Source of the DNA: a virus | IMG/VR virus record: IMGVR_UViG_3300045974_000283 | Span: 96,001-160,000 of that record | Length of the DNA: 64,000 nucleotides | Reading direction: 5' to 3' (one strand) | In this document: in pieces, positions 40,622 to 57,864 of the stretch | Position numbering within the stretch: the first letter of the stretch is position 1 | How the letters are laid out: the number at the start of each line of letters is the position of its first letter | Position numbers and translations under genes: made by a program | The notes under the pieces: model-generated | Seen by the model: only the letters and a program-made list of their open reading frames with translations | Told to the model about the DNA's origin: nothing | Database searches by the model: none

Positions 40622-41019
40622 TGTCAGTCCGAAGAGCCAAGAAAACACCGCGAACTCGCTACGAATCCAAGGCGTATCGAGGCTATCTGAAAGCGGCTGC
40701 GTATCACTCGTCGACCAGCATGTTCTTCAACTTCATGTTAGACGTGATAAAAACGTCGGGCATAACCAGAAAGCTTCTAGGCCTCGCTGGCTATGATCCA
40801 TCAGTCTCTCCCCGAGAGAAGGATCCCGAACTTGAAAAGTACGACCGTCGTAAGCGCGTCTACGAGATACCGAGTCATTGGGCTACGGAACCCGTCCAGT
40901 TCTACTTCCCAGAGTACACCATCCCAATCAACCGATTCTTCGAACAGGAACCGCCGTGTCAGTCCCCGCCAAACCTCACGACCGATTCGTCCTGTGCCCC
41001 TTGTTCACCCCGCTTATGA
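40618..41019 (+). CDS. hypothetical protein
   Basis: RBS AAGGAG and GTTAAT upstream; codon usage more AT-rich than neighbours. Confidence 0.55.
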   Translation: MMSVRRAKKTPRTRYESKAYRGYLKAAAYHSSTSMFFNFMLDVIKTSGITRKLLGLAGYDPSVSPREKDPELEKYDRRKRVYEIPSHWATEPVQFYFPEYTIPINRFFEQEPPCQSPPNLTTDSSCAPCSPRL

Positions 41020-41188
41020 CGGGTCCTCAGCGCCGCGCCGTCTGGTCGCGATGGGCTCATGCTCGTGGAACCGACTGGAGTAGGTGACGATCGGGACGGC
41101 CGCACCTGAGACAGCTACAAGGCTGTCGTATCTCTCCAGGAGTTCCCGACAAGAAGCGGCACCACACCATAAACCCCAAGGAGTTCCT

Positions 41189-41599
41189 ATGTCCGACATC
41201 CAAAACACCCCTCCCGTCCAACACGCATCCACCCAGAACGCCGGATGGGCCTATCTGCTCATGAAGGTTCTTACCGAACTTCTCCCACCCACTATCGGGG
41301 CTAAAGGACCGCGCCGTCATGTCCTCTGCTTGACTGCACCGGAAGACCTTGAGAAAGGTCCGATGGAAGTTCTCATTGCCTGCGAGGAAAGGCCCGTTGC
41401 TATCACCCTTTCTGATGAAGACTTGGTGAAGAACCCTCAAGAGCTCGCCGTCGAAATCCGCGACCTCATCATGGGTCCGGCCGAGACGGCCGAGACGCCC
41501 AAGTCGCCAGAGGCCATCGTTTGGGAGCAGGGCTACAACGCTGCCTTCATGTACATGAACACCGACGCAACTGACATCCCTGCCAACCCTTACCTCTGA
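41189..41599 (+). CDS. hypothetical protein
   Basis: ATG 41189 with RBS AAGGAG. Confidence 0.75.
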   Translation: MSDIQNTPPVQHASTQNAGWAYLLMKVLTELLPPTIGAKGPRRHVLCLTAPEDLEKGPMEVLIACEERPVAITLSDEDLVKNPQELAVEIRDLIMGPAETAETPKSPEAIVWEQGYNAAFMYMNTDATDIPANPYL

Positions 41600-41604
41600 T
41601 CATC

Positions 41605-41958
41605 ATGGAAAAGATCCTTCCTCAAGAATCCATGCTCAGCGTGGTCCGCTTCGTTGGTGGCCTTCAGATCATCGGCGACGTTCGACGCCAGCTGAACGGC
41701 CTCTACATCGACAGGGCCCTGGAGATCATGGTCGCTCAGGTGCCCATGAATGGGCCGCAAGGCATCGCCGTGCAGAACATCGTTCAGTTGGTCCCGATCA
41801 GTGCGGCTGCCTCAGGCAAGGGAGAGAACATCGGTCCGTTCAAGGACGACGTCATCCTGCTCTGTAAGCCGATGCCCCGCGAAGCGCAACTCGCGCAGCA
41901 ATACATGAACGCCACCACGGGACTCATCTTCGCACCGGGAATGATGCCACCACGCTGA
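41605..41958 (+). CDS. hypothetical protein (small beta-barrel, Sm-like pattern)
   Basis: 117 aa, ending QYMNATTGLIFAP. Confidence 0.75.
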   Translation: MEKILPQESMLSVVRFVGGLQIIGDVRRQLNGLYIDRALEIMVAQVPMNGPQGIAVQNIVQLVPISAAASGKGENIGPFKDDVILLCKPMPREAQLAQQYMNATTGLIFAPGMMPPR

Positions 41959-41981
41959 CCATCGCCATCACGGAGTCCCTC

Positions 41982-42959
41982 ATGGACAAAGTCCTCATCG
42001 CCATCGACGGCAACTGGCTCGTCCACCGCTCCCTGAGCATGTGCGCCAAGGTGCCGGAGGAAGCCCGCCCTCGCGTCGTGGCTCGTCAGCTCGTGTCGTG
42101 GGCTTACAACTACGCCGCGAAGGTTCGAGCCACGCACGGCTTCGTCGCCTTCGACGGTGGTGACATCTTCCGCCGCAAGATCTGGCCTCTGTACAAGGCC
42201 AACCGCAAGACGCTCCTCGTCAACGGCCAACCCGTATCCGACGAGGAGCGCGACCGCCTGATCAGCTCAGGTGCCCCAATCGAAATCCAAGACCGCCCGG
42301 ATCTCTACGCCTCCATGACACTGGCGCGTGAGACCCTGCGGTCTTTTGATTTTCCTGTCCTACATCCAACACGCCTTGAGGCCGACGACGCTCTTGCCTC
42401 GGCCGCTGCACTGGCTGAGCGAACGGGTGACCTACGCCACGCCTACCTCTGCACCCGCGACAAGGACATTGTTGGCTCGATAAACGAGAAGGCTTCGCAG
42501 TGGATGCCCGGCAAAGCCGACGAAGCACCGGAGGTCGTCTCCTTGGCAAACGTAGGCGACCGTCTCGCCAGGATCGTGGGGATACGGGCCGCCAAGTGGA
42601 CGCCTCGCAAGTTCCGCGAGTATCAGGTTCTGGTCGGTGACCCCACTGACTACATCCCTGAGATCATCTCGCCGGGTCAAGCGGTCAGTCTGCTGAATCG
42701 GATCAACAGTCTTGGTGATTGGCTCTACTCCGCGTCGGACGGCATCCAGTTCTGCAAGAAGCATAGCGCTGCCATCATTCGGAACCGTGAGCTTGTCATC
42801 ATGGACAACACTCTCATCCCGGACTTGGCACCGCTGCGCATACCCAAGCCCCGCACTGATGTCGAGCGCCTTCACGCCCCGGCTGCTCTGGCGGCGATGC
42901 ACGACTATCACAAGCTCATGGCTATCAACCCCAATCGTTCGCTCTTTGGAAAGAGGTAG
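41982..42959 (+). CDS. 5'-3' exonuclease / flap endonuclease (Pol I N-terminal / T4 RNase H family)
   Basis: IDGNWLVHR, AFDGG..FRRKIWPLYKANR, EADD, TRDKD, LVGDPTDYIP. Confidence 0.92.
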   Translation: MDKVLIAIDGNWLVHRSLSMCAKVPEEARPRVVARQLVSWAYNYAAKVRATHGFVAFDGGDIFRRKIWPLYKANRKTLLVNGQPVSDEERDRLISSGAPIEIQDRPDLYASMTLARETLRSFDFPVLHPTRLEADDALASAAALAERTGDLRHAYLCTRDKDIVGSINEKASQWMPGKADEAPEVVSLANVGDRLARIVGIRAAKWTPRKFREYQVLVGDPTDYIPEIISPGQAVSLLNRINSLGDWLYSASDGIQFCKKHSAAIIRNRELVIMDNTLIPDLAPLRIPKPRTDVERLHAPAALAAMHDYHKLMAINPNRSLFGKR

Positions 42960-43014
42960 ACCATGCGCGACCGCACCTTCGCTGACTTTGTTCTTTTCAC
43001 CGGAATCACTCAAC

Positions 43015-43929
43015 ATGACCAAGAACGCACTGAAGACCGTCGCTCAGCCGATCCCCTTCCCGCCCCACATGGAACAAGCGGCCTTCTGGATTCGGGAGCG
43101 GGAGAGCATCCGCCAGAAGAAGGACTCCGGCCTGCCGCCTCCGTGGACTCAAGATCCAATGATGGCGGGGACGAGATGGTGCAACGTGAGGCGGATGGAC
43201 GATAAGGTCAGCAAGTGGCTTCTCGATCACTTCTACGTCAAGAACCTTCCGCCAGCTCAGATGGCCGTCGGCGCGGCACTGGCTCGCCTCATCAATCGTC
43301 CTGAGACACTCATCCGCATGTGTCCCTCAGGTTATCAAGGCTTCGACAACGCCCGGTTCCGCAAGGTGCTCCGAGCCATGAAGGCTGCGAAGGAGCAGAT
43401 CTTCACCGGCGTCTACATCATCAACGGTGCGCAAGCCAACGGCCGCGACAAGTGGGAGCTCGTGCTCGACAACCTCGACGGGATGCGCCGCGCTCTCAAA
43501 GACAAGGACCTCGATCTGTCGTCCATGTCCGCAGTCCACACAAAGCTGATGGAGACCAAGGGTCTGGGCTCTTTCTTGGCAGGTCAAGTCGTTGCTGACC
43601 TGCGACACGTTCTGCCTCAAGGTCAATGGCTCGACCGCAACACTTGGGCTCCCGTCGGTCCCGGTTCCACGAAGGGCCTCAACTACGTGTTCAACACACC
43701 CGGTGAGCGCACGACGCAAGCTCGCTTCAACGAGCTTCTCCCGATCTATGTCAAGGCGGTTAATAAGATGCCCGGCATCGCTGCCATCGCCCGCGAACGG
43801 AAGCTCGAAGCGCATGACTACCAAAATACGCTATGTGAAATTTCCAAGTGGGCGCGCCTGCGTGAAGGCGGACGTTCGAAGAACAAGTATCAAGCGAAGC
43901 CGCCCGGTGAACAGCTGACCCTTCTGTGA
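43015..43929 (+). CDS. aGPT-Pplase / 5hmdU-DNA hypermodification family enzyme (HhH glycosylase-like fold)
   Basis: FWIRERESIRQKKDSGLPPPWTQDP..RWCNVRRMDDKVSKW; GLGSFLAGQVVADL; GPGSTKGL; YQNTLCEISKW. Confidence 0.85.
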   Translation: MTKNALKTVAQPIPFPPHMEQAAFWIRERESIRQKKDSGLPPPWTQDPMMAGTRWCNVRRMDDKVSKWLLDHFYVKNLPPAQMAVGAALARLINRPETLIRMCPSGYQGFDNARFRKVLRAMKAAKEQIFTGVYIINGAQANGRDKWELVLDNLDGMRRALKDKDLDLSSMSAVHTKLMETKGLGSFLAGQVVADLRHVLPQGQWLDRNTWAPVGPGSTKGLNYVFNTPGERTTQARFNELLPIYVKAVNKMPGIAAIARERKLEAHDYQNTLCEISKWARLREGGRSKNKYQAKPPGEQLTLL

Positions 43930-43935
43930 GGCATC

Positions 43936-44787
43936 ATGAGTGAACTAGCCATCTACATCCCGAGTCGGAGCCGCTTCGAGAAGTCCCTTACCTTGAAATA
44001 CTTGACTCCGAACTGGGACAAGGGACCGATCTATCTCGTGGTGCCCGCTGAGCAGCGCAAGGACTATCGGTTTCTCGCCAAACAATACGGCGTGACCATC
44101 CTGCCGTGCTCGGAGTCTGGCATCGCCTTGACGCGTCTGTTCTGCGGTGAACACGCCACGGACAAGTTCATCATGTTCGATGACGACCTCCGCTTCTCCT
44201 ACCGACCCAAGCGGAACAAGGAGACGGGCATCGACCAGACGGGCAAGAACGCTCAAGGACTAAGGCTTTACAAGGCCGAAGGCAGCCAGATCACGCGAAT
44301 GCTGACCATCGCTGAGACGCTGCTCGACAGATACGCTCACATCGGGGTCTCGCCTCGCGCGGGCAACCAATCGATGCCTCTGCCGATACGCGAGTGCGCT
44401 CGCCCGCTACGCGTCCTTGGCTACCGCAAGCGAGAGTTCCTCTCATGTGAACACGGCCGCGTCGCGATCATGGAAGATTTTGATGTCACACTTCAGTTGT
44501 TGACGCGTGGCTACAAGAACGCCTTGATCACGACGCATGTGAACGATCAGCTCGCGACGAACACGGAAGGAGGCTGCTCCGATTATCGCACCGAGAAACT
44601 TCACAACACGAATGTCAAGAAGATGCACTCCCTGTGGGGAGTGCCGATCACCAAGATCGTCGAGAAGAAGAACGTCAGTGCAGCGGCCTTGGCAGCGGGT
44701 CTCGCCGCCCGCAAAGAGCTGAACATCCAATGGATCAAAGCCTGGAAATCCTCCGGCAAAGACCTCAAACCCAGACTATCACGGTGA
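43936..44787 (+). CDS. GT-A glycosyltransferase, TET/JBP-associated (TAGT/GREB1-like) type
   Basis: IYIPSRSR, GIALTR, FIMFDDDL (DxD), MEDFDVTLQLLTRGY, GGCS..RT. Confidence 0.85.
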   Translation: MSELAIYIPSRSRFEKSLTLKYLTPNWDKGPIYLVVPAEQRKDYRFLAKQYGVTILPCSESGIALTRLFCGEHATDKFIMFDDDLRFSYRPKRNKETGIDQTGKNAQGLRLYKAEGSQITRMLTIAETLLDRYAHIGVSPRAGNQSMPLPIRECARPLRVLGYRKREFLSCEHGRVAIMEDFDVTLQLLTRGYKNALITTHVNDQLATNTEGGCSDYRTEKLHNTNVKKMHSLWGVPITKIVEKKNVSAAALAAGLAARKELNIQWIKAWKSSGKDLKPRLSR

Positions 44788-44790
44788 CCC

Positions 44791-45777
44791 ATGGACATCT
44801 ATCCTGTTGACCCTCCTTTCAGCCTTCAAGTCGAGCCCACTGAGGGCTGCTCGTTGGCTTGCTCATTCTGCGGCATCGCTTCTATCCGCGACAATGGAGC
44901 CAACGCCAACGAGGGCGTCCACGGCAAGAACTCCGCTCCCTACAAGCACATGGAGCGGGCCACCCTGATCCGACTGATGAAAGAAGTGAAGCGGCTCAAG
45001 TGGAATCCCCGCATCGAGTTCGCGATGCACGGTGAGCCTTCGATGCACCCTGACCTTCCTGGACTGGTCTCGGCGACCCGGAAGATTCTCGGCAATTCAG
45101 CTCACATCATGATCACCAGCAATGGCTCAGGTCTGACCACGCCTGAGAAGATCAACGCGTTGATAGCGGCTGGCCCGAACACGCTGGCGCTGGACGACTA
45201 CAAGCACGCCAAGTTCATGCCGAAGATCAAGGAGTTCGTGCGGACTCTTGGTCACACTGTGTTCGACTATCCGGCTGACAAGGAAGGCAACCCGCACCAT
45301 CGCAACAAGGGCAGTCGCATCGTCCTGATCAACGACATCAGTGAGAACACCGACGGCAACCATCAACTGACGAACCAAGGCGGAAGCTCGTTCGATGCTT
45401 TGACCGAGCCGCTCGTGCGTCGCTGCGCCAAGCCGTTCCGCGAGCTGTCTGTGCGCTGGGACGGCAATGTCGCCATCTGCTGTGACGATTGGGTCGGAGC
45501 CTACAAGATCGGCAACACGAACGAGCTGCCGCTCGACGAAATCTGGCTGCACCCGCGTTTCGAGGCGGCTCGCCGTCGCCTGTACGCCAAGGACCGCGAC
45601 TTCGGCCCGTGCAAGGGCTGCAACGTGAAGACCATGCGCGACGGCCTGCTCCCCGACAAGATGGGGAAGGGCGAGATGAAGGGCGTCTCTCCGGCCAGCG
45701 AGGCGCACCTGCGAGCGGCTCTGCGCGGTCGCATCTTCTCGATCAAGGAAGTCAAGGAAGTCAAGAGCGTCGCATGA
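44791..45777 (+). CDS. radical SAM enzyme with SPASM/twitch domain
   Basis: EPTEGCSLACSFC (CxxxCxxC), FAMHGEP, TSNG; C-terminal CAKPF...DGNVAICCDDW...IGN...IW...PCKGC. Confidence 0.92.
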   Translation: MDIYPVDPPFSLQVEPTEGCSLACSFCGIASIRDNGANANEGVHGKNSAPYKHMERATLIRLMKEVKRLKWNPRIEFAMHGEPSMHPDLPGLVSATRKILGNSAHIMITSNGSGLTTPEKINALIAAGPNTLALDDYKHAKFMPKIKEFVRTLGHTVFDYPADKEGNPHHRNKGSRIVLINDISENTDGNHQLTNQGGSSFDALTEPLVRRCAKPFRELSVRWDGNVAICCDDWVGAYKIGNTNELPLDEIWLHPRFEAARRRLYAKDRDFGPCKGCNVKTMRDGLLPDKMGKGEMKGVSPASEAHLRAALRGRIFSIKEVKEVKSVA

Positions 45778-46994
45778 AAACAGTCCTCGTCCTCGACCTG
45801 CTCTACTACGATGTTCATCCGACCGTCCACAAGAACGGTGTCACGCCCACCGCTCTTGAGGAGGCCTCCGTTCTGGCAGCGCACGGGTATCGGGTGATCT
45901 TCGGGTGCGCTGGCTCCAACTTGAACCGGCTGAAGAAAGCGTATCCTGAGGTCGAGTTCGTCAACCTGTTCCCGCAGACCTATGCCAGCATGCTCGATGA
46001 CGACAAGCACACGGTTGAGAGTTCTGGCTTCTCTCCGACGGTGGCAGCTAAGATCAAAGAGATCGTCATCAACGAGAAGATCTGGGTCATCTCGTGCTCG
46101 TCGATGCGTCAGCTGCTCAAGCATCTGGAGAAAGTAGACCTACCGTGCCCTGTCGTGTACACGATGCACTTCTGGCCTCAGCCAAATCTGATGTTCCACG
46201 CGAGCACGGTCGGTGGTCTGCTGGCGATCCGTGAGAACCCCAAGTTCTACATCTGTGCCAACACCGAGTTCACGATGGAGCAGCACCTTGAGCAGTCGCG
46301 GCTTGCTCACGCGAAGGGCTTGATTCGTGGTTCCGCTCTCGCGGCCTACGATCGCTTTGAGGGCAACTACTCGGACAGCTTCTGGAGACGCATGACCTGT
46401 AGCGACTCGGTGCCGGACATCCCAGTCTGCAACGTACCCTCCGGTCGCCTCATAGTTGCCAGTCGCACCCACAAGGCCAAGAACCCTGTCTTCTGCTCGG
46501 CAAGTCCCCTGATCGACTTCCACCTTCTGGTCTATGAGAACCCAGACAAGGACGCTCAAGCCATCCTGGACAAGATGGCGTCGGTGGGTGCCAGCGTGCA
46601 ACGCAACACCCCTCAGGTCAAGCTCTACAAGCTGATGGCGCGCAGCTCAGGGGTCGTGGTCTCATGCACGTTCGAGACCTTCGCTCGTACATCTTTCGAA
46701 GCGGCCTGCTCGGGCGTCCCTAGTCTGGTGTTCGTGGACAAGACAGGCAAACACGCCGTCCATTCCTGGAGCCAGCAAGCGGGCGTTCAGTTCGACTCGT
46801 TCCGTTTCGCCGACCTGAAAGACCGCAAGAACCGATTCAAGGCAGCGGTCGAGCATGTCGCCACAGGCTGGTCGTATGAGGAACGGCTGGAGCTCAAGCG
46901 GAGAGTTCGCAGCTACTTCAGCGCCAAGAACTTCGTGGCCGAGCGTACCTCTGCGTTCAAGGCGGCATGGTCCAAAATGAAAGCGTCCTCATGA
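45774..46994 (+). CDS. GT-B glycosyltransferase (GT4-like)
   Basis: N-terminal G-V...LAAHGYRVIF; C-terminal ETFARTSFEAACSGVP (ExF/GxxxxEA signature); ATGA-coupled. Confidence 0.8.
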   Translation: MKTVLVLDLLYYDVHPTVHKNGVTPTALEEASVLAAHGYRVIFGCAGSNLNRLKKAYPEVEFVNLFPQTYASMLDDDKHTVESSGFSPTVAAKIKEIVINEKIWVISCSSMRQLLKHLEKVDLPCPVVYTMHFWPQPNLMFHASTVGGLLAIRENPKFYICANTEFTMEQHLEQSRLAHAKGLIRGSALAAYDRFEGNYSDSFWRRMTCSDSVPDIPVCNVPSGRLIVASRTHKAKNPVFCSASPLIDFHLLVYENPDKDAQAILDKMASVGASVQRNTPQVKLYKLMARSSGVVVSCTFETFARTSFEAACSGVPSLVFVDKTGKHAVHSWSQQAGVQFDSFRFADLKDRKNRFKAAVEHVATGWSYEERLELKRRVRSYFSAKNFVAERTSAFKAAWSKMKASS

Positions 46995-48007
46995 TCAACA
47001 TCCTTCACTGTTCGCCGTGGCCCATAGGCGGCGCAACGTCGTACACAGTTCACCTCGCATCTGTCTTCGAGAAGACAGGTGTCCCTCACCGGATCATCCG
47101 CTTGGCAAAGAAGACTGAGCGCAAGTCCCGTGAGATGGGTTCCTACGGGGTTTCTTATGTCAACACCTCCGTCGAGGACGCGGCCAAGCTGGACGGCAAG
47201 TTCCTGCTCGCATCAGCGCCAACGGATGAAGACATGGGGCTGGCCTGCGCCAAGCTAGTCGAGCGTTCCCGTGGTGCCTACGTCTTCCACGATCCCAACG
47301 AGTTCGGCATGTACCCTCATTGGGACGCCAGAAAGCGATGGGGCTCTCGGTGCCGGGCAAGCGTCATCTGCATCCGCGAGCAGGGTCGTGTTCATATCCC
47401 CGAGGGCGTGTTCATTCCCCACCCATACGTCCGCACCTTCTCCAAGAAGACTCACAACGATGCCAAGACCAAGACGGCTGTCAGCGTCGCGCGGGTGAGC
47501 GGTGTCAAGAAAGCCCACTGGATCATCGAAGCGAACCAGACCCTACACGAAGCCGCCCGCGTTGACCTACGCGGAGAGGTCAATCGCATGTGGTGGAAGT
47601 TCACCATCGAGAAGAAGTTCCCCGGCATCCAACTGCCTGAGAACGCTGGCTTTCCCCGCATCATGGGTGCCGCTGCTGAGATCTGCAAACCCTATCAGCT
47701 GATGGTCGATCTGACCATCTTCAAAGAGGACGGCGGCGGAACTCAGTACGCGATGCTCGAAGCCATCGACGCGGGCGCTGTTCCCGTGATGACCAAGGAA
47801 TGGTGCTCGTATCCGGGCAAGGCCAGTGACCTCGTGATCCAGATCACCGACACGGATGGCCTGAAACGCCTCTTGAAGTCCTCACGGAAAGGCGTGCTCA
47901 TGAGCGACATCGACGGCCTTCGCCAGTCGAACTACGAGTATCTCGATTCCGTCCACTCACCCAAAGCGGTCAGCCGCGCCTACGTCTCAGCCCTGGAGTC
48001 TGCATGA
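46991..48007 (+). CDS. second GT-B glycosyltransferase
   Basis: HCSPWPIGGATSY loop; ARVSGVKK; DGGGTQYAMLEAIDAGAVPV. Confidence 0.8.
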   Translation: MINILHCSPWPIGGATSYTVHLASVFEKTGVPHRIIRLAKKTERKSREMGSYGVSYVNTSVEDAAKLDGKFLLASAPTDEDMGLACAKLVERSRGAYVFHDPNEFGMYPHWDARKRWGSRCRASVICIREQGRVHIPEGVFIPHPYVRTFSKKTHNDAKTKTAVSVARVSGVKKAHWIIEANQTLHEAARVDLRGEVNRMWWKFTIEKKFPGIQLPENAGFPRIMGAAAEICKPYQLMVDLTIFKEDGGGTQYAMLEAIDAGAVPVMTKEWCSYPGKASDLVIQITDTDGLKRLLKSSRKGVLMSDIDGLRQSNYEYLDSVHSPKAVSRAYVSALESA

Positions 48008-48630
48008 AAGTTCTCGTCACGGGAAACCCCCGAAGTGGCACCCTGTCCCTCAGTCTGACGCTGCGCAAAGCCGGACTCGATGTCGGCCACGAGCGCATGG
48101 GCAAGGACGGTACGGTGTCGTGCTTCTTCTTCAAGCAAGTCGAATACTACCCCCGGGAAGGTGGAACCGAGAACCGTCACCTGACCGACGGCAAGGATGA
48201 CAACTTCGATGAAGCCGAGTTCGACTTCGCTTACCATCTGGTGCGCAATCCGCTCAAGTGCATCCCATCTATGCAGAAGATCGTCAACCGTCGCCACCGA
48301 CAGTGGATACGGGACATCGGCATCTGCGAGTGGGACCCCAAGAACCAGTCGAACATAGAGTGGTGCGCCTTGGCGTGGTATCACACGAATCTGTACATCG
48401 AGCAGAACCTGAACTTCCCTCGGCTGCGGGTGGAGACCCTCTTGAAAGACTGGCCCAATGAACTGTGCCCGCGTCCAACCGAGATCAAACACTCGCACAA
48501 GAGCTCGGGCTTTCGCAAAGCTGCACCGATCACTCCGGCTCAGCTCACGGATATATCGGGAGCGGCCCTTTCCAAATCCATCCTCGACATGGCGCGCCGC
48601 TACGGCTACGCCAAGTCCGACCTTCAGTAG
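48004..48630 (+). CDS. sulfotransferase-fold protein
   Basis: VLVTGNPRSGT (5'-PSB loop), VGHE, HLVRNP (3'-PB motif), AWYHTN; ATGA-coupled to the GT-B gene. Confidence 0.75.
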   Translation: MKVLVTGNPRSGTLSLSLTLRKAGLDVGHERMGKDGTVSCFFFKQVEYYPREGGTENRHLTDGKDDNFDEAEFDFAYHLVRNPLKCIPSMQKIVNRRHRQWIRDIGICEWDPKNQSNIEWCALAWYHTNLYIEQNLNFPRLRVETLLKDWPNELCPRPTEIKHSHKSSGFRKAAPITPAQLTDISGAALSKSILDMARRYGYAKSDLQ

Positions 48631-48647
48631 TTCAACCCGGAGTTCAC

Positions 48648-49448
48648 ATGACATCACCTTCACAATTAGTTTTTCCAAAAGCGACCTACCGTAGTGTTCG
48701 CGGGGTCATACCCGATAGAGTTTTCACTGTCACCGAGGTCAGGCCGAACGAAAGTTCTCCGAGCGCATCCATCATCTGTTACACCGACGGCCAAACAGGC
48801 ACCTGGATGATGGACCAGAGATCTTTCCTTGAGGAATTCGTTCTGCTCAAGCCTTACGAACCGGAGCCGCCTTTCAAGGTCACCGCTGGCACCCTCTACC
48901 GCCACACCAAGTCCGGCCTCCTTGGTTCCCTGTGGTCCTTGAACGGCTACCGAGCGCTCTTCGAAGTCATGCTTGTGGAGGGTGACGTTCGGTTGCGCCG
49001 GGTCTCGGTCGACCGAGAGCTCCAAGCGAACTTCGAGTCTGGAGTCGACGAGTTCCGGGACCAGACACTGAACCTCCTGTACCCGCCCGCGTCGATCGTG
49101 ATCTTCACGCACCTGTCGTTCCTCCAGTCGTTCACGCCCGTCCAGTTCAAACTTCAGCGGCCTGAGGACCCCAAGCCGAAGCCCCCAAGTTCTGGCCGAC
49201 CGGAGTGGCTGATCCGCATCGACGTCGAGGCAGGCGAGCTGAGCGTCAAGATGCAGAAGCTCACCACGTTCCTGTGTGAAGTTCACCTGCTTCCCGAAGG
49301 CCGCAAGCCCACGGCTTCACAAGAACTGCTGATGCGCCTGCAACTGGACGCCATGCGCCTCTACTACCAGATCCTGCTGAATCGTCTCAAGGACGGTGAG
49401 GACGCGATGGCCGACGCTCAGGTCGTTCACCATATAGGCAACGCATGA
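48648..49448 (+). CDS. hypothetical multi-domain protein with C-terminal helical hairpin
   Basis: RBS GGAG; C-terminus ELSVKMQKLTTFL...LMRLQLDAMRLYYQILLNRL. Confidence 0.7.
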   Translation: MTSPSQLVFPKATYRSVRGVIPDRVFTVTEVRPNESSPSASIICYTDGQTGTWMMDQRSFLEEFVLLKPYEPEPPFKVTAGTLYRHTKSGLLGSLWSLNGYRALFEVMLVEGDVRLRRVSVDRELQANFESGVDEFRDQTLNLLYPPASIVIFTHLSFLQSFTPVQFKLQRPEDPKPKPPSSGRPEWLIRIDVEAGELSVKMQKLTTFLCEVHLLPEGRKPTASQELLMRLQLDAMRLYYQILLNRLKDGEDAMADAQVVHHIGNA

Positions 49449-49774
49449 CTGATGCTGTCCAACCCCCAGAAGAAACCAAGCCGCCTCTGACCGAGTTTCA
49501 ACGCGGCGCTCGGGCGATGTTCGACTACTTCCATATCCGGGCGGCGAACAACTGGCATGGCAACCCGAAGGTCCAGGAGCAGTGCGCCAAGGAAAACACC
49601 CTGCTCCTGAGCTGGGTTGAGGACGCCCTTGAGAGTGTGGATCCCGCCATCCACGCCGAGTGGAAAACTCTCCAGGAAGCCACCAAGAGCGCCTATCACC
49701 AAGGGTATCTCGACGCCTTGGCAACGAAACAGTCCCACAATGCTCCACCGACAACAAAGGCGTCCGTCGTATGA
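49445..49774 (+). CDS. hypothetical protein
   Basis: ATGA overlaps at both ends. Confidence 0.75.
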   Translation: MTDAVQPPEETKPPLTEFQRGARAMFDYFHIRAANNWHGNPKVQEQCAKENTLLLSWVEDALESVDPAIHAEWKTLQEATKSAYHQGYLDALATKQSHNAPPTTKASVV

Positions 49775-50220
49775 CCCCGCACAAACAACTCAACCTCCAC
49801 AAGCCGCTTGAAGGCCAGATCGGCGACTGCTTCCGCACGGTCATTGCCTGCTTGCTCGACCTGCACCCTTCGGACGTACCTCACTTCTACCAAGAGGTCT
49901 GGCACGAGCCCGATGCTGCTCAGACTGCTGAACGCGAACTTCGCAAGTTCTTGCGGCACTATGACCTGGACTTCATCGAGGTTGCCTACAAGGACACCTT
50001 GCTGAACGTCATGGAAGCGCAAGCGATCATGAACCCCGGCATCTACTACCTGCTGACAGGAAACTCAGCGAACGGCGTCGGTCACGTGGTCATCTGCTGC
50101 GGAGACCAGATCGTCCACGACCCGGCCATTGACAATTCCGGTATCGTTGGCCCTTCCGACACCGGGAACTATCACATCACGTGGCTCGTGCCAAGTCTCA
50201 TGCGCCGCCTTGCCTGTTAA
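49771..50220 (+). CDS. hypothetical protein with papain/C39-like Cys-His pattern
   Basis: GDCFRTVIACLL...VPHF...GHVVICCGDQIVHDP. Confidence 0.7.
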   Translation: MTPHKQLNLHKPLEGQIGDCFRTVIACLLDLHPSDVPHFYQEVWHEPDAAQTAERELRKFLRHYDLDFIEVAYKDTLLNVMEAQAIMNPGIYYLLTGNSANGVGHVVICCGDQIVHDPAIDNSGIVGPSDTGNYHITWLVPSLMRRLAC

Positions 50221-50257
50221 TGGCCCCGCTTCACAACCCTCACTGAAGATTTCCATC

Positions 50258-51457
50258 ATGAACAAACCGACCCCGGTCACCGATCTCAACGGCGCGATCA
50301 CGCTCGCAGCCACAAGCCCGGACAGCCATCTGTTCCGGCTGCTCTACCTTCTCCAGTCCGAACAGTATCACGGCGTCGTGGCCCAGACCGAGAGCCGCAA
50401 CGGCCCCGTCCTGCGCTTCACGGTGCCTGTCATCACTTCGTGGATTTGCCCCGATCAGCGCGTGAGCTTCTGGGACAAGCGCGATGCCAATCCATTCTTC
50501 CACTACATGGAAGCGATCTGGATGTTGGCGGGCCGCGACGACGTTGCCTTCCCGTCCTACTTTGCCAAGCAGATCAAGCAATTCTCCGACGACGGTGAGA
50601 CCTTGAACGGTGCCTACGGCTATCGCTGGCGCAACTTCTTCGACAACGGCAACTTCGATCAACTCGAAGACGCCATCGCTCAGCTCAAGGCGAATCCCTC
50701 GTCGCGTCGCGTCATCCTGCAGATGTGGCACGCGGTCGCTGATCCGCAGAGCGCCGCTGAGGGCTCGAAGGACGTCCCCTGCAATATCTCGGTGATGTTC
50801 GATGCCGTCAACGGCAAGCTGAACATGACCGTCGTCTGCCGCTCCAACGACATCATCTGGGGTGCCACGGGCGCGAACGTGGTCCACTTCTCGATTCTGC
50901 ACGAGTACGTCTCGGCGGCTGCGGGCCTGCGCGCTGGCACCTATCATCAGGTGAGCAACAACCTTCACGTCTACACCGAGTTCCCGGTCTCGAAGCCGCT
51001 GCTGGAAGCCACGGACGATCCGACACCGGAAGAACTGCGCGGTGACTATCCGGGCGAGGCGCTCGACCTGTACGCGGCGCGTGAGAACGGTCTTTTCCCG
51101 ATGCCGCTGTTCCGTTCGAACGAAGTGGTCGATGCCGACGAGTTCGATGATGTCCTGCTGGATACAGACTTCCTGGACGCGATTCGGGAAGAGTTCGACG
51201 AGGATAGTGTTTCGCGTCAGCAGAACATCCAAGCGTACATTGACGCCTTGAAGGAAATGGCGATTACCGGAGCTGGATGGCGGCAACACGCCAACGTGAT
51301 GCAGGCTGCTTTCATCATGCACCGCGAGCTTGGTCAAACCTCTGAGGCCATCGAGTACCTCAAGGAAGCCAACATCGGCCCCGACTGGAAGCTCGCATGT
51401 GTCAACTGGCTCCAACGCCGTCTGGACGCCGCCAAGGCAAAGGAGATCGCAGCATGA
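50258..51457 (+). CDS. thymidylate synthase-superfamily enzyme, probable dUMP hydroxymethylase (5hmdUMP synthase)
   Basis: SRNG, ANPFFHYMEAIWMLAG, GAYGYRWR, SRRVILQMW, catalytic KDVPCN, RSNDIIWGATGAN (Asn suggests dUMP specificity), NNLHVY. Confidence 0.85.
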   Translation: MNKPTPVTDLNGAITLAATSPDSHLFRLLYLLQSEQYHGVVAQTESRNGPVLRFTVPVITSWICPDQRVSFWDKRDANPFFHYMEAIWMLAGRDDVAFPSYFAKQIKQFSDDGETLNGAYGYRWRNFFDNGNFDQLEDAIAQLKANPSSRRVILQMWHAVADPQSAAEGSKDVPCNISVMFDAVNGKLNMTVVCRSNDIIWGATGANVVHFSILHEYVSAAAGLRAGTYHQVSNNLHVYTEFPVSKPLLEATDDPTPEELRGDYPGEALDLYAARENGLFPMPLFRSNEVVDADEFDDVLLDTDFLDAIREEFDEDSVSRQQNIQAYIDALKEMAITGAGWRQHANVMQAAFIMHRELGQTSEAIEYLKEANIGPDWKLACVNWLQRRLDAAKAKEIAA

Positions 51458-52149
51458 AAGACCGCTTGATTGGCTTGGGTCTCCCGCACGACCCCGAGTT
51501 CGCCGCTCGGGTTCAGTCATTCACGGCTGTCCACGCTCATGTTCGTGGCTGCGCGACCAAGCGCTACCACACTGAGCCCACGCTGCAGAACGAGACGGTC
51601 GGCGCTCACGTCGGCTTCATGGTCGGTGCGGCCTTCATCATCTACGACACGCCTTCGCTGGCGCTACTCAAGGCCATCAGCCTGCACGATCACATGGAAG
51701 CCATCACTGGCGACATGCCCGCGCCGATGAAGGTCCGGAGGCCCGAGCTGAAAGCCATCATCGACGAACTGGAGATGGAGTTCCACGGCGAGTCGAAGCT
51801 GCCCGGCTGGCCCATGCTTGACGCGCACGAAGAACGGCAACTGAAGGTCTTGGACCGCCTGTCAGGAGTCGCCTGCGCCTCGCAAGAACTTCGCATGGGC
51901 AACTGGAGCGTCCACCACGTTCTGGGTGCCTTCTGCGGTTACTTCGCGACGCTGAAGCCCGAATGGAAGGAGCTCTACTTCTTCGAGGGTCTTCTGGACA
52001 CCGCACCGAATCGCAACCGGGCTGTCCCCGACGACACAAAGCGTCTGTTCGAGGCGATGGTCAAGAGCGTCCGTGAGGCGGCGTCTCCCAAATACCGCAC
52101 GAACCCCAAGCCGGACGGCATGTCTTCCCTCGGTCCAATCGCGAGCTGA
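51454..52149 (+). CDS. HD-domain 5'-deoxynucleotidase (YfbR-like)
   Basis: RYHT...ETVGAH...LHDHMEAITGDMPAPMK...LKVLDRL; ATGA-coupled to the TS homologue. Confidence 0.85.
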   Translation: MKDRLIGLGLPHDPEFAARVQSFTAVHAHVRGCATKRYHTEPTLQNETVGAHVGFMVGAAFIIYDTPSLALLKAISLHDHMEAITGDMPAPMKVRRPELKAIIDELEMEFHGESKLPGWPMLDAHEERQLKVLDRLSGVACASQELRMGNWSVHHVLGAFCGYFATLKPEWKELYFFEGLLDTAPNRNRAVPDDTKRLFEAMVKSVREAASPKYRTNPKPDGMSSLGPIAS

Positions 52150-52152
52150 ATC

Positions 52153-52455
52153 ATGGGCCACTACCTTAGCGAGATGCAGTGCAACGACTGCGGTCGCGTC
52201 CGCTGCGAGTGCAAGCGCAAGCCGGACCCGGAGCCGGAGTGGACGATCAACGACAAGTTCGAGGTCGTTCACCGTGACACGATATCTCTCATGTATCGGT
52301 CTCGGGCAACTTGGTTCTATACCAAGGAAGCTGCTGAAAACATGGTCTTGCCTACTCTCGAGGACAGTATCAAGATGGCGCAGGAACGCATTGAGCAAGA
52401 CAAGAAACGGGTCGCCAAGCTGAAAGACCTACGCAAGAAACTGGAGTCCAAATGA
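52153..52455 (+). CDS. hypothetical protein (CxxC..CxC plus coiled coil)
   Basis: 100-aa ORF coupled to the next gene. Confidence 0.7.
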   Translation: MGHYLSEMQCNDCGRVRCECKRKPDPEPEWTINDKFEVVHRDTISLMYRSRATWFYTKEAAENMVLPTLEDSIKMAQERIEQDKKRVAKLKDLRKKLESK

Positions 52456-52640
52456 CATCTCTCACCCTCATGAACATTGGAGTGGGCCTGCTCGGCGTCG
52501 CCGTTCTGCTCCACGGCGGGATCTCTTTCTTCTCGACAGGCTACTCGAAGGCCGGGTACATAGCGCTTGTCAGCGTCTGCTGTACGTCCATCGTTTGCAT
52601 GTTGTCAGCGCTCACATGGGTTCAGTTCTTCCACCCCTAG
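52452..52640 (+). CDS. small two-TM membrane protein
   Basis: 62 aa, two hydrophobic segments. Confidence 0.6.
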   Translation: MTSLTLMNIGVGLLGVAVLLHGGISFFSTGYSKAGYIALVSVCCTSIVCMLSALTWVQFFHP

Positions 52641-52673
52641 CAATTTTAGGGGTTCCAACACCCGGAGACTTCC

Positions 52674-53135
52674 ATGTCGCTCACCGCTGCCCAGATTCTC
52701 AAGTCCCTCGCCCGAGTGCCACCCGGCAAAGACGGCGAGGACCGTTTCGATCGTGCCACCCGCGTGAAGGTAACCGAGCTCAAGCGCGGCAAGGTCAAGA
52801 CGAACGGCAACATCCGCTTCCTGTGCAAGACCAAGACCCCGGAACACGTCAAGGGTCGCCTCATCGTGGAGACTTACGTCACCTCGGTCGAGTTCAAGAT
52901 GCAGGGCAAGATGGCGGGCAAGTACGTCATTGTCTCCTGCGGATGCCCGGACTTCTGCTTCATGTGGGAATACAACCTCACGCAGAAGGATGCGTCCATG
53001 ATCAAGTACGGCAACGGCGAGGCCCCCACGAAGCCGATTCCTATCGGCATGTGCAAGCATCTGATCCGCACCTTCGATCAGCTCGTGACAAAGGCTCAAG
53101 TCGACTCCAAATTCGTACTCCCGGTGACCACATGA
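52674..53135 (+). CDS. SWIM zinc-finger protein
   Basis: VSCGCPDF...MCKH (CxC-x(n)-CxH); RBS GGAG. Confidence 0.8.
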   Translation: MSLTAAQILKSLARVPPGKDGEDRFDRATRVKVTELKRGKVKTNGNIRFLCKTKTPEHVKGRLIVETYVTSVEFKMQGKMAGKYVIVSCGCPDFCFMWEYNLTQKDASMIKYGNGEAPTKPIPIGMCKHLIRTFDQLVTKAQVDSKFVLPVTT

Positions 53136-54109
53136 GCAATAACTACGCACACAGCACCAACTTCGCCGGGATGAAGAATGTCGCAGAGCAGTTCGACTCG
53201 AACCTGACCTCCGCACAGTATCTTCAGGCGTTGGACAGCCTCCTGTTCCGCGCCTACTCGCCGATCATAATGGCGACCAACTCATTCGACGCCCTCGTGG
53301 GTCAGCTCATCGGCTGGCAAGAAACTACACGCAAGCGCAAGGTCTCGTTCCAGCATCGGGACGAGTTCATTCCCATCGCACTGACTTGGCTGTGTCTACC
53401 GTCTCGGGAAGAGAAGGCCGCACGGGCTGCGGATCTGCTGCTGGACCGGGCTGCTCTAGCTGAGTTCGTCGAAACCTTCATAAGCTCGATGGATCGATTC
53501 GAGCAGGCGTCCAACCTCCTGCTGACCGACAAGGACGGCAACCCGTGTTCCATCGATGAGCACATGGCCTTCGCCCACTCCGTCGTGGACTCGTGTGGTG
53601 CGCCATCCATAGGTGTTCTGCTAAACGCCATCACCGAGAGCAAGCTCTACATCAGCCGTTATCACAAGTTCGCGGAAGCCATCATGACGCGGTTCACCCG
53701 CCTCTGCCTGATGACTGCTCAGCGCGACTACGTGAACGTCTTCGGGCACTCCATTGATTTGAACGACGCTGTCCAGGTCTACATGATGGTGGCCCGCCGC
53801 GCCATCGACAAGTGTGACCCGCGCCAAGGCGTCCTCACCTCGCACATCCAGTCCTGGCTCAAGTCCGGTCGCTCCATCATCGCCGACCAACAGAAAGGCG
53901 ACGGCAGCGCCATCACGCTGGATGACACCGAGGAAGAACCTTACGAGGGCTCCGAGGCGGAAGCGGTCAGTCGCAGCGAACATTCAAGCCGCGTCAGCGA
54001 GATCGCCCGTCTTGTTGACCCCGAAGGCTACGGTCGAGCTTGGCTCGGCCTGAACGAATCACCAACCTGGATACGCTCACAAATGGAAGCCCTCACCACG
54101 CATCAGTAA
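53132..54109 (+). CDS. sigma70 region-2-like protein (putative phage sigma factor)
   Basis: LNDAVQVYMMVARRAIDKCDPRQGVLTSHIQSWL parallels the region 2.2-2.3 pattern DLxQ..L.RA.DKFDP..G....Y...W; ATGA-coupled to the SWIM gene. Confidence 0.65.
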   Translation: MSNNYAHSTNFAGMKNVAEQFDSNLTSAQYLQALDSLLFRAYSPIIMATNSFDALVGQLIGWQETTRKRKVSFQHRDEFIPIALTWLCLPSREEKAARAADLLLDRAALAEFVETFISSMDRFEQASNLLLTDKDGNPCSIDEHMAFAHSVVDSCGAPSIGVLLNAITESKLYISRYHKFAEAIMTRFTRLCLMTAQRDYVNVFGHSIDLNDAVQVYMMVARRAIDKCDPRQGVLTSHIQSWLKSGRSIIADQQKGDGSAITLDDTEEEPYEGSEAEAVSRSEHSSRVSEIARLVDPEGYGRAWLGLNESPTWIRSQMEALTTHQ

Positions 54110-54157
54110 ACCTTCACAACCATCACGCGTCCCCTTCACACAAACCGAAAGTTCACC

Positions 54158-54823
54158 ATGTCCACCAAGAAAACCAAGGCTCCGGCCAAGGCTGCACCCG
54201 CCCCGGCGTCCAAGCCTGTTCTCAAGAACGCACCGAAGCCCGCTGCGAAAACTGCCGCTCCGGCCGCGAAGCCTGCTCCCGGGGCGAAACCCAAGAAGGT
54301 CAATCCTGCTGAGCTGAAGGTCGCCGCCAAGGAACTTGGTCTGGTGAAGAAAGCCCTCAAGGGTGCAATCGCTGCAACGCCGAAGCCGCCCAAGACGTCC
54401 AGACCCTTAAAGCCGATTCTGATCGTTCCGATCTTCCCGGCTGTCACTGGCCTAGGAATCCTGAAGGTCACGGAAGTCGCCGGTGAGTTCAACAACCGGC
54501 TCGAACTTCTGCTGCGCTCCCTGCCGCTGCAACTGGCCGTCCACTACCGTCAGCGCGCGACGCCGTTCATCGGCTCCGACATGCAGAAGCCCATGACCGG
54601 TGTCTACATCGGTTTCCTGGCAAGTCAATCAATTCCCGCACCCGCTTTCGTCTACTACTCCAGCCAACTCGACCGCTGGTCCTACTTCCACGACACCTGG
54701 GACGGTATGCTTTCGGCCATGAACGGCGGCAACGATGCCCCTGGCCTGCGCCCCGCAAGCAAGAAGGCGATCCCCGATATCTTCTACTGGTCTGGGTTCA
54801 ACCACGACCCGATGGAAGTCTGA
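54158..54823 (+). CDS. hypothetical protein with histone H1-like N-terminus
   Basis: KKTKAPAKAAPAPASKP...KPAAK repeats over about 80 aa. Confidence 0.8.
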   Translation: MSTKKTKAPAKAAPAPASKPVLKNAPKPAAKTAAPAAKPAPGAKPKKVNPAELKVAAKELGLVKKALKGAIAATPKPPKTSRPLKPILIVPIFPAVTGLGILKVTEVAGEFNNRLELLLRSLPLQLAVHYRQRATPFIGSDMQKPMTGVYIGFLASQSIPAPAFVYYSSQLDRWSYFHDTWDGMLSAMNGGNDAPGLRPASKKAIPDIFYWSGFNHDPMEV

Positions 54824-54848
54824 ACTTCACACCCACCAAGGAACACCC

Positions 54849-55769
54849 ATGCAAGCTCCACTCCCACTGAAAGAGCTCTACGAAGCTCAGGTCGCGCTCA
54901 ACGCCAAGACCCTCCCGGCCTTCCTGCCCTGCGGCGCGGCAAAGAAAGTCTTCATCGATGCGCGTGACCAATCTATCCGCCTCCCGGTAGACTTCAAGCA
55001 AGCCATGCAGCGCGAGCTCGATGAGCTGGCCGTCGTGCTGCCCTTCGGCCACTGGAAGGATACCGCCAAGCAGATGCGCGCCATCAGCTTCAACGACTTC
55101 CAAAATCTCCTCCTGGAACTGGTGGACATTTTCCACTTCCTGATGAGCGAGAACTTGGTCGAAGTGGCTTCGGTCTGCAACGACGGTCAACCTGATCTTG
55201 ACGTGATCGTCAAGCACTCGGTGGCTCGCCACACAGAGGCCCTCCTGTTCCTGGCACCCCGTGACCCGTCGATCACGACCTTCGCAGACGTCTGGCACAA
55301 GGTGAACGAGAACGGCCAGATGAACATCGGCGACTTCTGCACACTCGCCAACCTGAACACTGAGGTGAGCAGTTTCAGCGCTCGGCTGGCCCCCGGTGCC
55401 ACGCTCGAATCGGAGCGCGTGATCTACAACTTCCACACCCTCCTGAGCATGTTCGGCTTCTCGAACGATGACCTGCTCACGGTCTATCGCGGCAAGGGCG
55501 TTCTCAACGAGTTCCGCCAGTGCAACGGCTACCGCGACGGCAGCTACATCAAGCAATGGAAGGGCGCTGGAACTTCCACCATCGAGGACAACGTGGTGAT
55601 GCTCGGCATGATCAGCCGGAGCATTCCGGCCTTCCTGCCCGATGGTGTCGAGCCCTACGACTTCTCACCCGGCGAACTGTTCATGATGTTGGACGCCGAG
55701 TACAAGGCGATGAAGGCTGTCCTGGAGTCGAAGAGCCGCACCTTCAAAACTTCAGACGCCCACTCTTGA
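54849..55769 (+). CDS. dut: dimeric all-alpha dUTPase
   Basis: QVALN, ELDEL...HWK, LELVDIFHFLMS, YRGKGVLNEFRQCNGYRDGSYIKQW, EDN. Confidence 0.88.
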   Translation: MQAPLPLKELYEAQVALNAKTLPAFLPCGAAKKVFIDARDQSIRLPVDFKQAMQRELDELAVVLPFGHWKDTAKQMRAISFNDFQNLLLELVDIFHFLMSENLVEVASVCNDGQPDLDVIVKHSVARHTEALLFLAPRDPSITTFADVWHKVNENGQMNIGDFCTLANLNTEVSSFSARLAPGATLESERVIYNFHTLLSMFGFSNDDLLTVYRGKGVLNEFRQCNGYRDGSYIKQWKGAGTSTIEDNVVMLGMISRSIPAFLPDGVEPYDFSPGELFMMLDAEYKAMKAVLESKSRTFKTSDAHS

Positions 55770-55825
55770 ACTTTCGAGGCCGGGCTGTTAATGCACGGCC
55801 AACTTCCACAACCCATAGGTGAACT

Positions 55826-56197
55826 ATGCCAACTGAACAAGAAATCGAAGCCGAGATTGTGCGCAAGGGCCTCACGGCTCCGCGCATCACCCCGATCTTC
55901 ATCGACAGTCTCATCGTCAAGGAAGACTACCACGTTTTCCCCGGCTCCCGAGTGACGGTCTGCGCGTTGTTCCTCAAGAACGGCTACGTCGTCGTCGGCG
56001 AAGGCGCGGCTGCGCACTCCGCAAACTTCGATGCTGAGACCGGCCGTCAAGCTGCTCGCAGAGTCGCTCGCGAGAAGATCTGGCCGCTGGCCGGATACGC
56101 CCTGCGCGAGCAGCTGACACAGGCTCACGATCTGGCGCTCGAAGTCGCGGCCGAGGCACAGGCGGAAGCTGACGCTCAGGCTCAAACAGCTCTCTGA
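55826..56197 (+). CDS. N4 Gp49 / Sf6 gp66 family protein
   Basis: TAPRITP..IDSLI..EDY...VTVCALFLKNGY.VVGE.A.....NFDAETGRQAAR..A.EKIWPLAGYALREQL. Confidence 0.85.
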   Translation: MPTEQEIEAEIVRKGLTAPRITPIFIDSLIVKEDYHVFPGSRVTVCALFLKNGYVVVGEGAAAHSANFDAETGRQAARRVAREKIWPLAGYALREQLTQAHDLALEVAAEAQAEADAQAQTAL

Positions 56198-56223
56198 ATT
56201 TCTCAACACCTTACGAGGTATCA

Positions 56224-57789: not shown

Positions 57790-57814
57790 CCTCACAGTCC
57801 GTTGAATCGCACTG

Positions 57815-57847
57815 AAGGGCCGACCGCTGTGTCGGCCCTTTTCGTTT
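57815..57847 (+). terminator. Rho-independent terminator
   Basis: AAGGGCCGAC-CGCTGT-GTCGGCCCTT followed by TTCGTTT. Confidence 0.85.
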
Positions 57848-57864
57848 CTACCCCGGAGTTTTAG

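Follow-up and report, generated by a model that had tools for sequence, protein, structure and literature searches.

A compact sulfotransferase-type gene in a phage operon with the features of 5-hydroxymethyldeoxyuridine hypermodification

We analysed a gene on the + strand of a 64,000-nucleotide stretch of viral DNA, referred to here as the window (positions 96,001 to 160,000 of IMG/VR record IMGVR_UViG_3300045974_000283). We found that the 208-residue product of this gene, located at 48004-48630, very probably has the fold of sulfotransferases together with a site for their cofactor, 3′-phosphoadenosine-5′-phosphosulfate (PAPS). The gene itself is likely to belong to a pathway that hypermodifies DNA through 5-hydroxymethyldeoxyuridine (5hmdU). 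As its function we propose the PAPS-dependent O-sulfation of a sugar on glycosylated 5hmdU in phage DNA, with PAPS taken from the host, a proposal that we hold at roughly even chances; by this reading, phage DNA probably bears sulfated sugars. The earlier note on this DNA had stated that sulfated DNA is not an established phage modification, and our literature search agreed, as it found neither a report of sulfated phage DNA nor a paper connecting sulfotransferases with the hypermodification of phage DNA (Iyer et al. 2013, PMC3763556, was outside this search).

Fold and cofactor site

The stop-free open reading frame (ORF) at 48004-48630 encodes two short motifs, TGNPRSGT (residues 6-13, nucleotides 48019-48042) and HLVRNP (residues 78-83, nucleotides 48235-48252), which the earlier note had taken for the PAPS-binding motifs of a sulfotransferase. 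The gene and its sites are:

48004..48630, + strand, predicted compact PAPS-type sulfotransferase, 208 aa (from motifs, relatives' profiles and predicted structure)
48019..48042, + strand, predicted 5′-phosphosulfate-binding loop T-G-N-P-R-S-G-T (R10, S11, G12, T13), without a Walker-A lysine
48088..48093, + strand, H29-E30, candidate catalytic base, 98% conserved, 20 residues past R10
48235..48270, + strand, predicted 3′-phosphate-binding motif H-L-V-R-N-P-L-K-C-I-P-S (R81 and S89, spacing 8)

A word-indexed search with the protein returned 22 homologues at E<=1e-3, one of them 97% identical and the rest 30-50% identical, and an exhaustive profile search returned 3264 cluster representatives at the same threshold, 131 of which reached E<=1e-30; most are 190-260 aa long. 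Since the residues of the two motifs are, in addition, the best-conserved columns of the family, the ORF is a real and conserved gene and its motifs go beyond chance. In an alignment of 147 family members, from which all conservation figures given here derive, G36, R81 and P83 are invariant (100%), and S89 (96%), R10 (93%), G12 (92%) and T13 (91%) are nearly so; H29, E30, S39, I87, E144 and Y202 also reach at least 90%. Judged by the alignment, the conserved core is the PRSGT loop, the R81...S89 pair and the H-E pair 20 residues past R10. The pattern of 5′-phosphosulfate loops, P-[KR]-S-G-[TS], is present as P9-R10-S11-G12-T13. Eight of nine family members checked are basic proteins (pI ~9-10), which fits the expectation for a DNA-associated enzyme.

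We assign the fold and the PAPS pocket from three lines of evidence: the profiles matched by relatives, alignment to known enzymes at the level of motifs, and comparison of structures. The Sulfotransfer_3 family was matched by 19 of 23 relatives at E<=1 (best E 9.9e-8), and Sulfotransfer_4 by 16. When the family-alignment profile was compared with PDB sequences, 11 of the 14 weak matches were sulfotransferases; CurM-ST and OLS-ST were the best. The PRSGT loop aligned to the PRSGS loop of these two enzymes and to the PRSGS/T loops of the tyrosylprotein sulfotransferases TPST1/2 and of Cpz8, and the family's hlVRhPlkcIaS stretch (a VRxPxxxIxS motif) aligned to HLVRHPYAVIES of OLS-ST and CurM-ST. 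These alignments bear out the identification of both motifs by the earlier note.

An AlphaFold (AF2) model built from the family alignment (pLDDT 92, pTM 0.89) places R81 and S89 in a frame formed by the strand 75-80 and the helix 83-93, and H29/E30 at the end of the strand 27-29, a pair that may correspond to E99 of TPST2 and E60 of CurM-ST. In an exhaustive structural comparison of the model with 48,161 chains, the top eight were all sulfotransferases: TPST1 (Z 10.0), OLS-ST (9.8), TPST2 (9.5), tick TPST (9.4), Cpz8 (8.7), Schistosoma ST (8.4), Stf9 (8.0) and NST (7.9). They aligned over 147-169 residues, with spans of 1-208 in five of the eight and of 1-172 or 1-203 in the others. The named structural neighbours in the ESM Atlas all belong to Sulfotransfer_1, _2, _3 or _4 (TM 0.53-0.66), and the best viral structural match was a domain of a Megaviridae 'capsular polysaccharide synthesis protein' (E 2.3e-9). 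With TPST1/2, CurM-ST/OLS-ST and Cpz8 the protein has in common the fold, the PRSG[TS] loop, the VRxP...S 3′-phosphate motif and, possibly, an acidic/His pair ~20 residues past the loop arginine. It differs from them in its size of only 208 aa, in lacking long acceptor lids, in an identity of 14-19%, and in its presumed acceptor, which would be a DNA-borne group rather than a peptide, an acyl-ACP or a nucleoside antibiotic.

Two results count against this assignment: Foldseek comparison of the model with the PDB gave weak E-values, and the protein stays below the Pfam gathering cut-offs, scoring 14.5 bits against the 22.8 required for Sulfotransfer_4 and 13.4 against the 27 required for Sulfotransfer_3. 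Because of the latter, the family is, in sequence, divergent and outside current Pfam models. Pfam, NCBIfam and PDB sequence searches with the protein alone gave nothing significant, and a PHROGs search gave a weak match only, to a PHROG without function. No match was found by tblastn in 50,697 cultured or deposited phage records, nor for the operon by megablast against cultured phages.

The earlier note had offered a P-loop kinase that activates 5hmdU as its alternative. The fold is indeed akin to that of dephospho-CoA, shikimate and guanylate kinases, and we found no other 5hmdU kinase in the whole virus record, which measures 177.8 kb (74% complete, 59% GC): neither a P-loop 5hmdU kinase nor the clade-2 amino-acid:DNA transferase (ADDT) was present, the PF18748 kinase profile had no match, and gp49 of phage PaMx11 as query retrieved nothing. 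The nucleotide kinases, however, ranked below the sulfotransferases (Z 5.8-7.8) and aligned over 102-127 residues confined to positions 1-157, whereas sulfotransferases reach across 1-208. The loop, G7-N-P-R-S-G12-T13-L14, does not follow the Walker A pattern GxxxxGK[ST], its lysine position being T in 91% of the family, and R81 and S89 fit a 3′-phosphate site, which kinases lack. Furthermore, no kinase family was matched, PF18748 and PF18751 being absent among the Pfam matches of the protein and its 22 relatives (PF18751 was not searched record-wide), in contrast to the many relatives that match Sulfotransfer_3. We therefore consider kinase activity highly improbable and keep the sulfotransferase assignment.

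The operon and its phage relatives

The sulfotransferase gene is the last of an operon of six genes, all on the + strand, and further genes lie downstream:

43015..43929, + strand, PF18723 protein (Pfam 'HMUDK_hel', formerly aGPT-Pplase clade 1; Pfam E 2.6e-42)
43936..44787, + strand, TET/JBP-associated glycosyltransferase (TAGT) of GT-A type (PF20691 E 4.5e-15, PHROG 842 E 7.5e-36)
44791..45777, + strand, radical S-adenosylmethionine (rSAM) enzyme with SPASM/twitch (Pfam Radical_SAM, SPASM)
45774..46994, + strand, GT4-like glycosyltransferase (GT) of GT-B type, 406 aa (Atlas feature score 0.98, TM 0.72-0.76 to GT4/BshA-type clusters)
46991..48007, + strand, alpha-glucosyltransferase (AGT)-like GT-B, 338 aa (nearest Atlas clusters carry PF11440 AGT, score 0.99)
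48648..49448, + strand, 266-aa protein with C-terminal crAss001_48 domain (PF21825 E 1.2e-9)
50129..51457, + strand, thymidylate synthase (TS) homologue, dUMP hydroxymethylase-like, start tentative (Pfam E 7e-24, PHROG 5131 E 8e-100)
51397..52149, + strand, YfbR-like HD 5′-deoxynucleotidase (PF12917 E 2.5e-7)

Genes of the operon are separated by 3-6 nucleotides or joined by ATGA overlaps. One such overlap connects the rSAM gene to the GT4-like gene at 45774, and by coordinates another connects the latter to the AGT-like gene at 46991. The ATGA coupling of the sulfotransferase to a GT-B gene, noticed earlier, is present as gcATGAaa at 48004-48007, where the ATG overlaps the TGA of ORF 46991-48007, and this upstream gene is the AGT-like one, nearest to clusters of phage DNA alpha-glucosyltransferases. 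The next gene begins at 48648, 17 nucleotides past the sulfotransferase stop, with GGAG upstream; a dUTPase_2 protein is also encoded downstream of the sulfotransferase. A promoter and terminator scan of 41000-52500 gave nothing above shuffled expectation.

Related loci place the gene in a pathway. We compared 17 other loci with a member of the sulfotransferase family, of which one came from a PF18723 search and one was too short to inform; 15 of the 16 informative loci are 5hmdU hypermodification clusters, which supports the earlier placement of the gene in a phage DNA-modification operon. The order PF18723 ... sulfotransferase ... TS homologue recurs in 11 loci besides the window, with varying genes in between, so that these three genes form an invariant trio of all 12 sulfotransferase-bearing loci of this type; in most related loci an HD nucleotidase gene comes after the TS homologue. 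Among the same 12, window included, an AGT-like GT-B is found in 8, a TAGT in 7 and an rSAM-SPASM enzyme in 5.

The strongest argument that sulfation belongs to the pathway comes from the Ralstonia jumbo phage RSL1 (NC_010811). Its ORF229-238 encode an adenosine 5′-phosphosulfate (APS) kinase (57 bits), three TAGTs, an APH-like kinase, a nucleoside triphosphate (NTP) transferase, a Sulfotransfer_2 enzyme (E 3.9e-21, 285 aa), a PF18723 protein and a TS homologue. The window at 50129-59442 is syntenic with RSL1 at 156-171 kb, with the TS homologue, a sigma-like protein, a single-stranded DNA-binding protein (SSB) and a RecA-like protein in the same order; identity is 42% for the TS homologue (ORF230) and the RecA-like protein, 34% for the SSB, 30% for the sigma-like protein and 28% for the PF18723 protein. 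The virus is probably a distant RSL1-like jumbo phage. In both clusters a TAGT, a sulfotransferase, a PF18723 protein and a TS homologue occur together; the sulfotransferase of RSL1 falls in a different Pfam family and is non-orthologous to ours. That homologous clusters of the glycosyl type contain two unrelated sulfotransferases, in one case together with a PAPS supply encoded in the cluster, argues that sulfation is part of the pathway. RSL1 differs from the window further in having the APS kinase, the APH-like kinase and the NTP transferase (an APS kinase was not found in the window's record) and in being without the AGT-like GT-B and the rSAM enzyme. Our literature search found no report on RSL1 DNA chemistry.

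PAPS as the sulfate donor is likewise suggested by the RSL1 cluster, which pairs APS kinase with a sulfotransferase, and by a relative of our gene in locus L005, a 22.6-kb viral contig, that directly follows an APS-kinase gene. The latter gene (L005:2031-2414; PF01583, 47 bits) encodes a protein of 127 aa, which keeps the GxxGxGKT P-loop and the DGDxxR and ICPYR (ISPY-like) motifs; the locus reads PIG-L-like deacetylase gene, PF18723, APS kinase, sulfotransferase, TS homologue. The earlier note had seen no PAPS-synthesis genes in the window, and this extends to the 177.8-kb record, in which we found no APS kinase, ATP sulfurylase or PAPS_reduct (CysD/CysH-type) gene. Without supply genes in the record, host PAPS would be needed.

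The PF18723 protein is a homologue of PaMx11 gp50, M6 gp55, phiW-14 gp72 and RSL1 ORF231 (tblastn E 5e-23 with the last; the link of M6 gp55 to PF18723 is taken from the phiW-14 annotation note). A Cys-Glu pair (C274 and E275, in LCE) is invariant across 10 aligned PF18723 proteins. The top Foldseek rows for its model (pLDDT 78.5) were all helix-hairpin-helix (HhH) DNA glycosylases, with weak E-values, and the protein is predicted to be a base-flipping enzyme resembling HhH DNA glycosylases. M6 gp55 was dispensable in a published reconstitution (PMC8989533). The clade-2 enzyme ADDT uses a catalytic Cys247 (PMC11472151), which the invariant Cys-Glu of PF18723 recalls by analogy. In longer proteins, PF18723 domains are fused to domains of family-A DNA polymerase, primase-helicase and N6/N4 DNA methylases, arrangements that suggest a replication-coupled role.

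As to the other enzymes, the TAGT matches RSL1 ORF237 and ORF234. NCBIfam gave generic SPASM/twitch matches only for the rSAM enzyme; kinship with the isomerase of phage M6 was considered and dropped, as none was detectable and only weak BtrN-like matches in Campylobacter phages appeared. The 45774-46994 product had no match in a Pfam scan, and the AGT-like GT-B had none by tblastn against cultured phages. A complex prediction for the GT-B and the sulfotransferase scored 0.00, which carries no weight either way.

With the clusters of M6, ViI, PaMx11, phiW-14 and SP10, the window has in common a TS homologue, an HD nucleotidase and PF18723 (PMC5889632, PMC8989533), as well as a post-replicative logic and possibly an rSAM tailoring enzyme. 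In contrast to those clusters, it has three glycosyltransferases and a sulfotransferase in place of the 5hmdU kinase and the amino-acid:DNA transferase. No sulfotransferase is mentioned by Lee et al. 2018 and 2021 on thymidine hypermodification (PMC5889632, PMC8989533). The pairing of an AGT-like GT-B and a TAGT with a hydroxymethyl-pyrimidine supply also resembles the T4 alpha/beta-glucosyltransferases and the kinetoplastid base J glucosyltransferase, although the T4 base is 5-hydroxymethylcytosine (5hmC), unlike the 5hmdU presumed for the window. To our knowledge, neither of these glycosylation systems includes a sulfation step.

The sulfate acceptor

The families of the encoded proteins suggest how the operon may work. 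The TS homologue, the HD nucleotidase and dUTPase-type enzymes would supply 5hmdUTP, and 5hmdU would be built in instead of T. Its 5-hydroxymethyl group on DNA would be glycosylated by the TAGT, the AGT-like GT-B or both, and the GT4-like enzyme may extend the glycan. The sulfotransferase would then move sulfate from host-made PAPS onto a sugar hydroxyl, with R10, S11, G12 and T13 holding the 5′-phosphosulfate, R81 and S89 the 3′-phosphate, and H29/E30 acting as the base; the rSAM-SPASM enzyme may alter the sugar further. The step order, like the expectation that virion DNA carries sulfate, is inferred.

A sugar as acceptor is suggested by the ATGA coupling to the AGT-like GT-B, by the co-occurrence of GT-B genes, by a fusion of a distant family member to a GT2 domain and by the match to the Megaviridae polysaccharide synthesis protein. 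To assess co-occurrence we fetched 80 IMG/VR loci with PF18723 relatives, annotated all loci with hidden Markov models built from our own alignments, and compared 90 PF18723 loci, 12 with the sulfotransferase and 78 without it. Fisher's test gave the values below, which overstate independence, as the two groups were sampled differently and contain some near-duplicates; in addition, cut-off flanks of loci can hide genes.

AGT-like GT-B: 8/12 with and 1/78 without sulfotransferase, p=5.5e-8
rSAM: 5/12 with and 4/78 without, p=0.0017
Any GT: 9/12 with and 30/78 without, p=0.027
P-loop kinase: 0/12 with and 23/78 without, p=0.03

In the 79 loci of the PF18723-based sample, a kinase was found in 23 and a TAGT in 29, and never both, which indicates that kinase-type and TAGT-type clusters are alternatives. 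The Pfam label 'kinase helical domain' for PF18723 misfits the kinase-less type. PF18723, TAGT and TS homologue without either kinase or sulfotransferase are a common combination, which argues against the sulfotransferase being needed in the kinase's stead; rather, it resembles an accessory gene that accompanies one particular glycosyltransferase. An APH-like kinase and a MobA/LicC-like nucleotidyltransferase, in some cases with a HAD-like gene, recur in these clusters (L007:10549-12628, L008:6714-7933, RSL1 ORF235-236), genes which may point to phage-made activated donors for glycosyltransferases.

Several facts weigh against a sugar on DNA. The acceptor is read from the gene neighbourhood only, and some neighbourhoods disagree: L005 has no recognised GT, and L006, L009 and L017 are clusters of the amino-acid type, in which the sulfotransferase is found with ADDT and a P-loop kinase, joined in L006 by an amidoligase and in the other two by a GATase. 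In none of the three does a GT adjoin the sulfotransferase; the TAGT-model match of L009 lies ~0.8 kb downstream. In two more loci (L003:7079-8017 and L046:11612-12544), a conserved ~310-aa protein, 43% identical within the pair, replaces the GT-B. Compared with the GT-B alignment by hhalign, this protein gave a probability below 1%, with only a C-terminal EX7E-like stretch aligned; this stretch, FYECLGAGIPVLMD, is its sole resemblance to a GT-B donor-binding motif. In L009 (9284-10624) and L017 (2913-4295), an N-terminal domain of ~240 aa, which belongs to no known family, is fused to the sulfotransferase, and the fusions sit in a recurrent cluster of GATase_6, ADDT, fusion and Ploopntkinase3; in one fusion protein (P0140) this domain opens with a degenerate, P-loop-like start.

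If not a sugar, the acceptor might be the 5-hydroxymethyl group of 5hmdU itself. The product would be 5-sulfooxymethyl-dU, from which the PF18723 Cys-Glu enzyme would displace sulfate, the sulfotransferase standing in for the 5hmdU kinase. CurM-ST and OLS-ST install sulfate as a leaving group, and besides being the best profile matches they are represented among the top structural matches (OLS-ST). PF18723 offers its invariant Cys-Glu as a counterpart to Cys247, the catalytic residue of ADDT (PMC11472151), and is retained in the kinase-less record as well as in a CheckV-complete relative (G003), where the P-loop 5hmdU kinase and ADDT are also missing. The trio with no kinase in any of the 12 loci points the same way, as does L005, where PF18723, APS kinase, sulfotransferase and TS homologue do without a GT. 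However, the annotation of the 80 further PF18723 loci led us to down-weight replacement of the kinase: in that unbiased sample, 29 of 79 loci have a TAGT and neither kinase nor sulfotransferase, which makes the latter an add-on, not an activator that such clusters need, and in L006, L009 and L017 it coexists with the P-loop kinase and ADDT. The strongest association of the sulfotransferase, moreover, is with the GT-B gene. We thus find direct sulfation unlikely. The broader notion of sulfate as a chemical handle on DNA, placed on the 5-hydroxymethyl group or a sugar carbon and leaving by PF18723 substitution or rSAM-SPASM radical elimination, is doubtful as well; if true, DNA bases could be activated for hypermodification in two ways, with PAPS driving one and ATP, through the 5hmdU kinase, the other.

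A less likely acceptor still is an amino-acid or linker moiety, sulfated on a hydroxyl or amine, or a sugar whose sulfate is eliminated by the rSAM enzyme, making sulfate a transient activator. Family members do occur in ADDT/GATase/amidoligase clusters, TPSTs are among the top structural matches, and the rSAM-SPASM enzyme co-occurs with the sulfotransferase, its gene following directly in L001, L014 and L015. The window, however, has no ADDT, its rSAM gene lies upstream of the GT-B genes, and no data point to such an acceptor. The enzyme could, finally, act off DNA, its substrate being a glycan of the host envelope or of a virion protein, or a small molecule. A distant member (L018:7001-8788), which carries fused GT2 and TPR domains, is encoded between tail genes and uncharacterised genes of a phage head-tail (structural) module, a setting that suggests sulfo-glycosylation of a non-DNA target, and in the giant virus the related domain belongs to a protein of polysaccharide synthesis. 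Set against this, the close subfamily (30-50% identity) keeps its place inside 5hmdU clusters, with PF18723 on one side and the TS homologue on the other, and the sulfotransferase is translationally coupled within its operon, so we judge action off DNA to be improbable. A sugar on glycosylated 5hmdU remains the acceptor that we prefer.

Implications for phage DNA modification

Hypermodifications of phage DNA govern the access of restriction enzymes, CRISPR nucleases and sequencing chemistries to the genome, and the thymine adducts known so far are amines, amino acids and sugars. A family of 3264 cluster representatives without a member in 50,697 phage genomes has been missed by culture-based work; cultured RSL1, with an unrelated sulfotransferase in a like cluster, offers a direct experimental entry. 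If our proposal is correct, a DNA-directed sulfotransferase would constitute a new class of enzyme for the labelling of 5hmU and 5hmC, and sulfate esters on DNA-borne sugars would place in the major groove a strongly anionic group for which we found no prior report.

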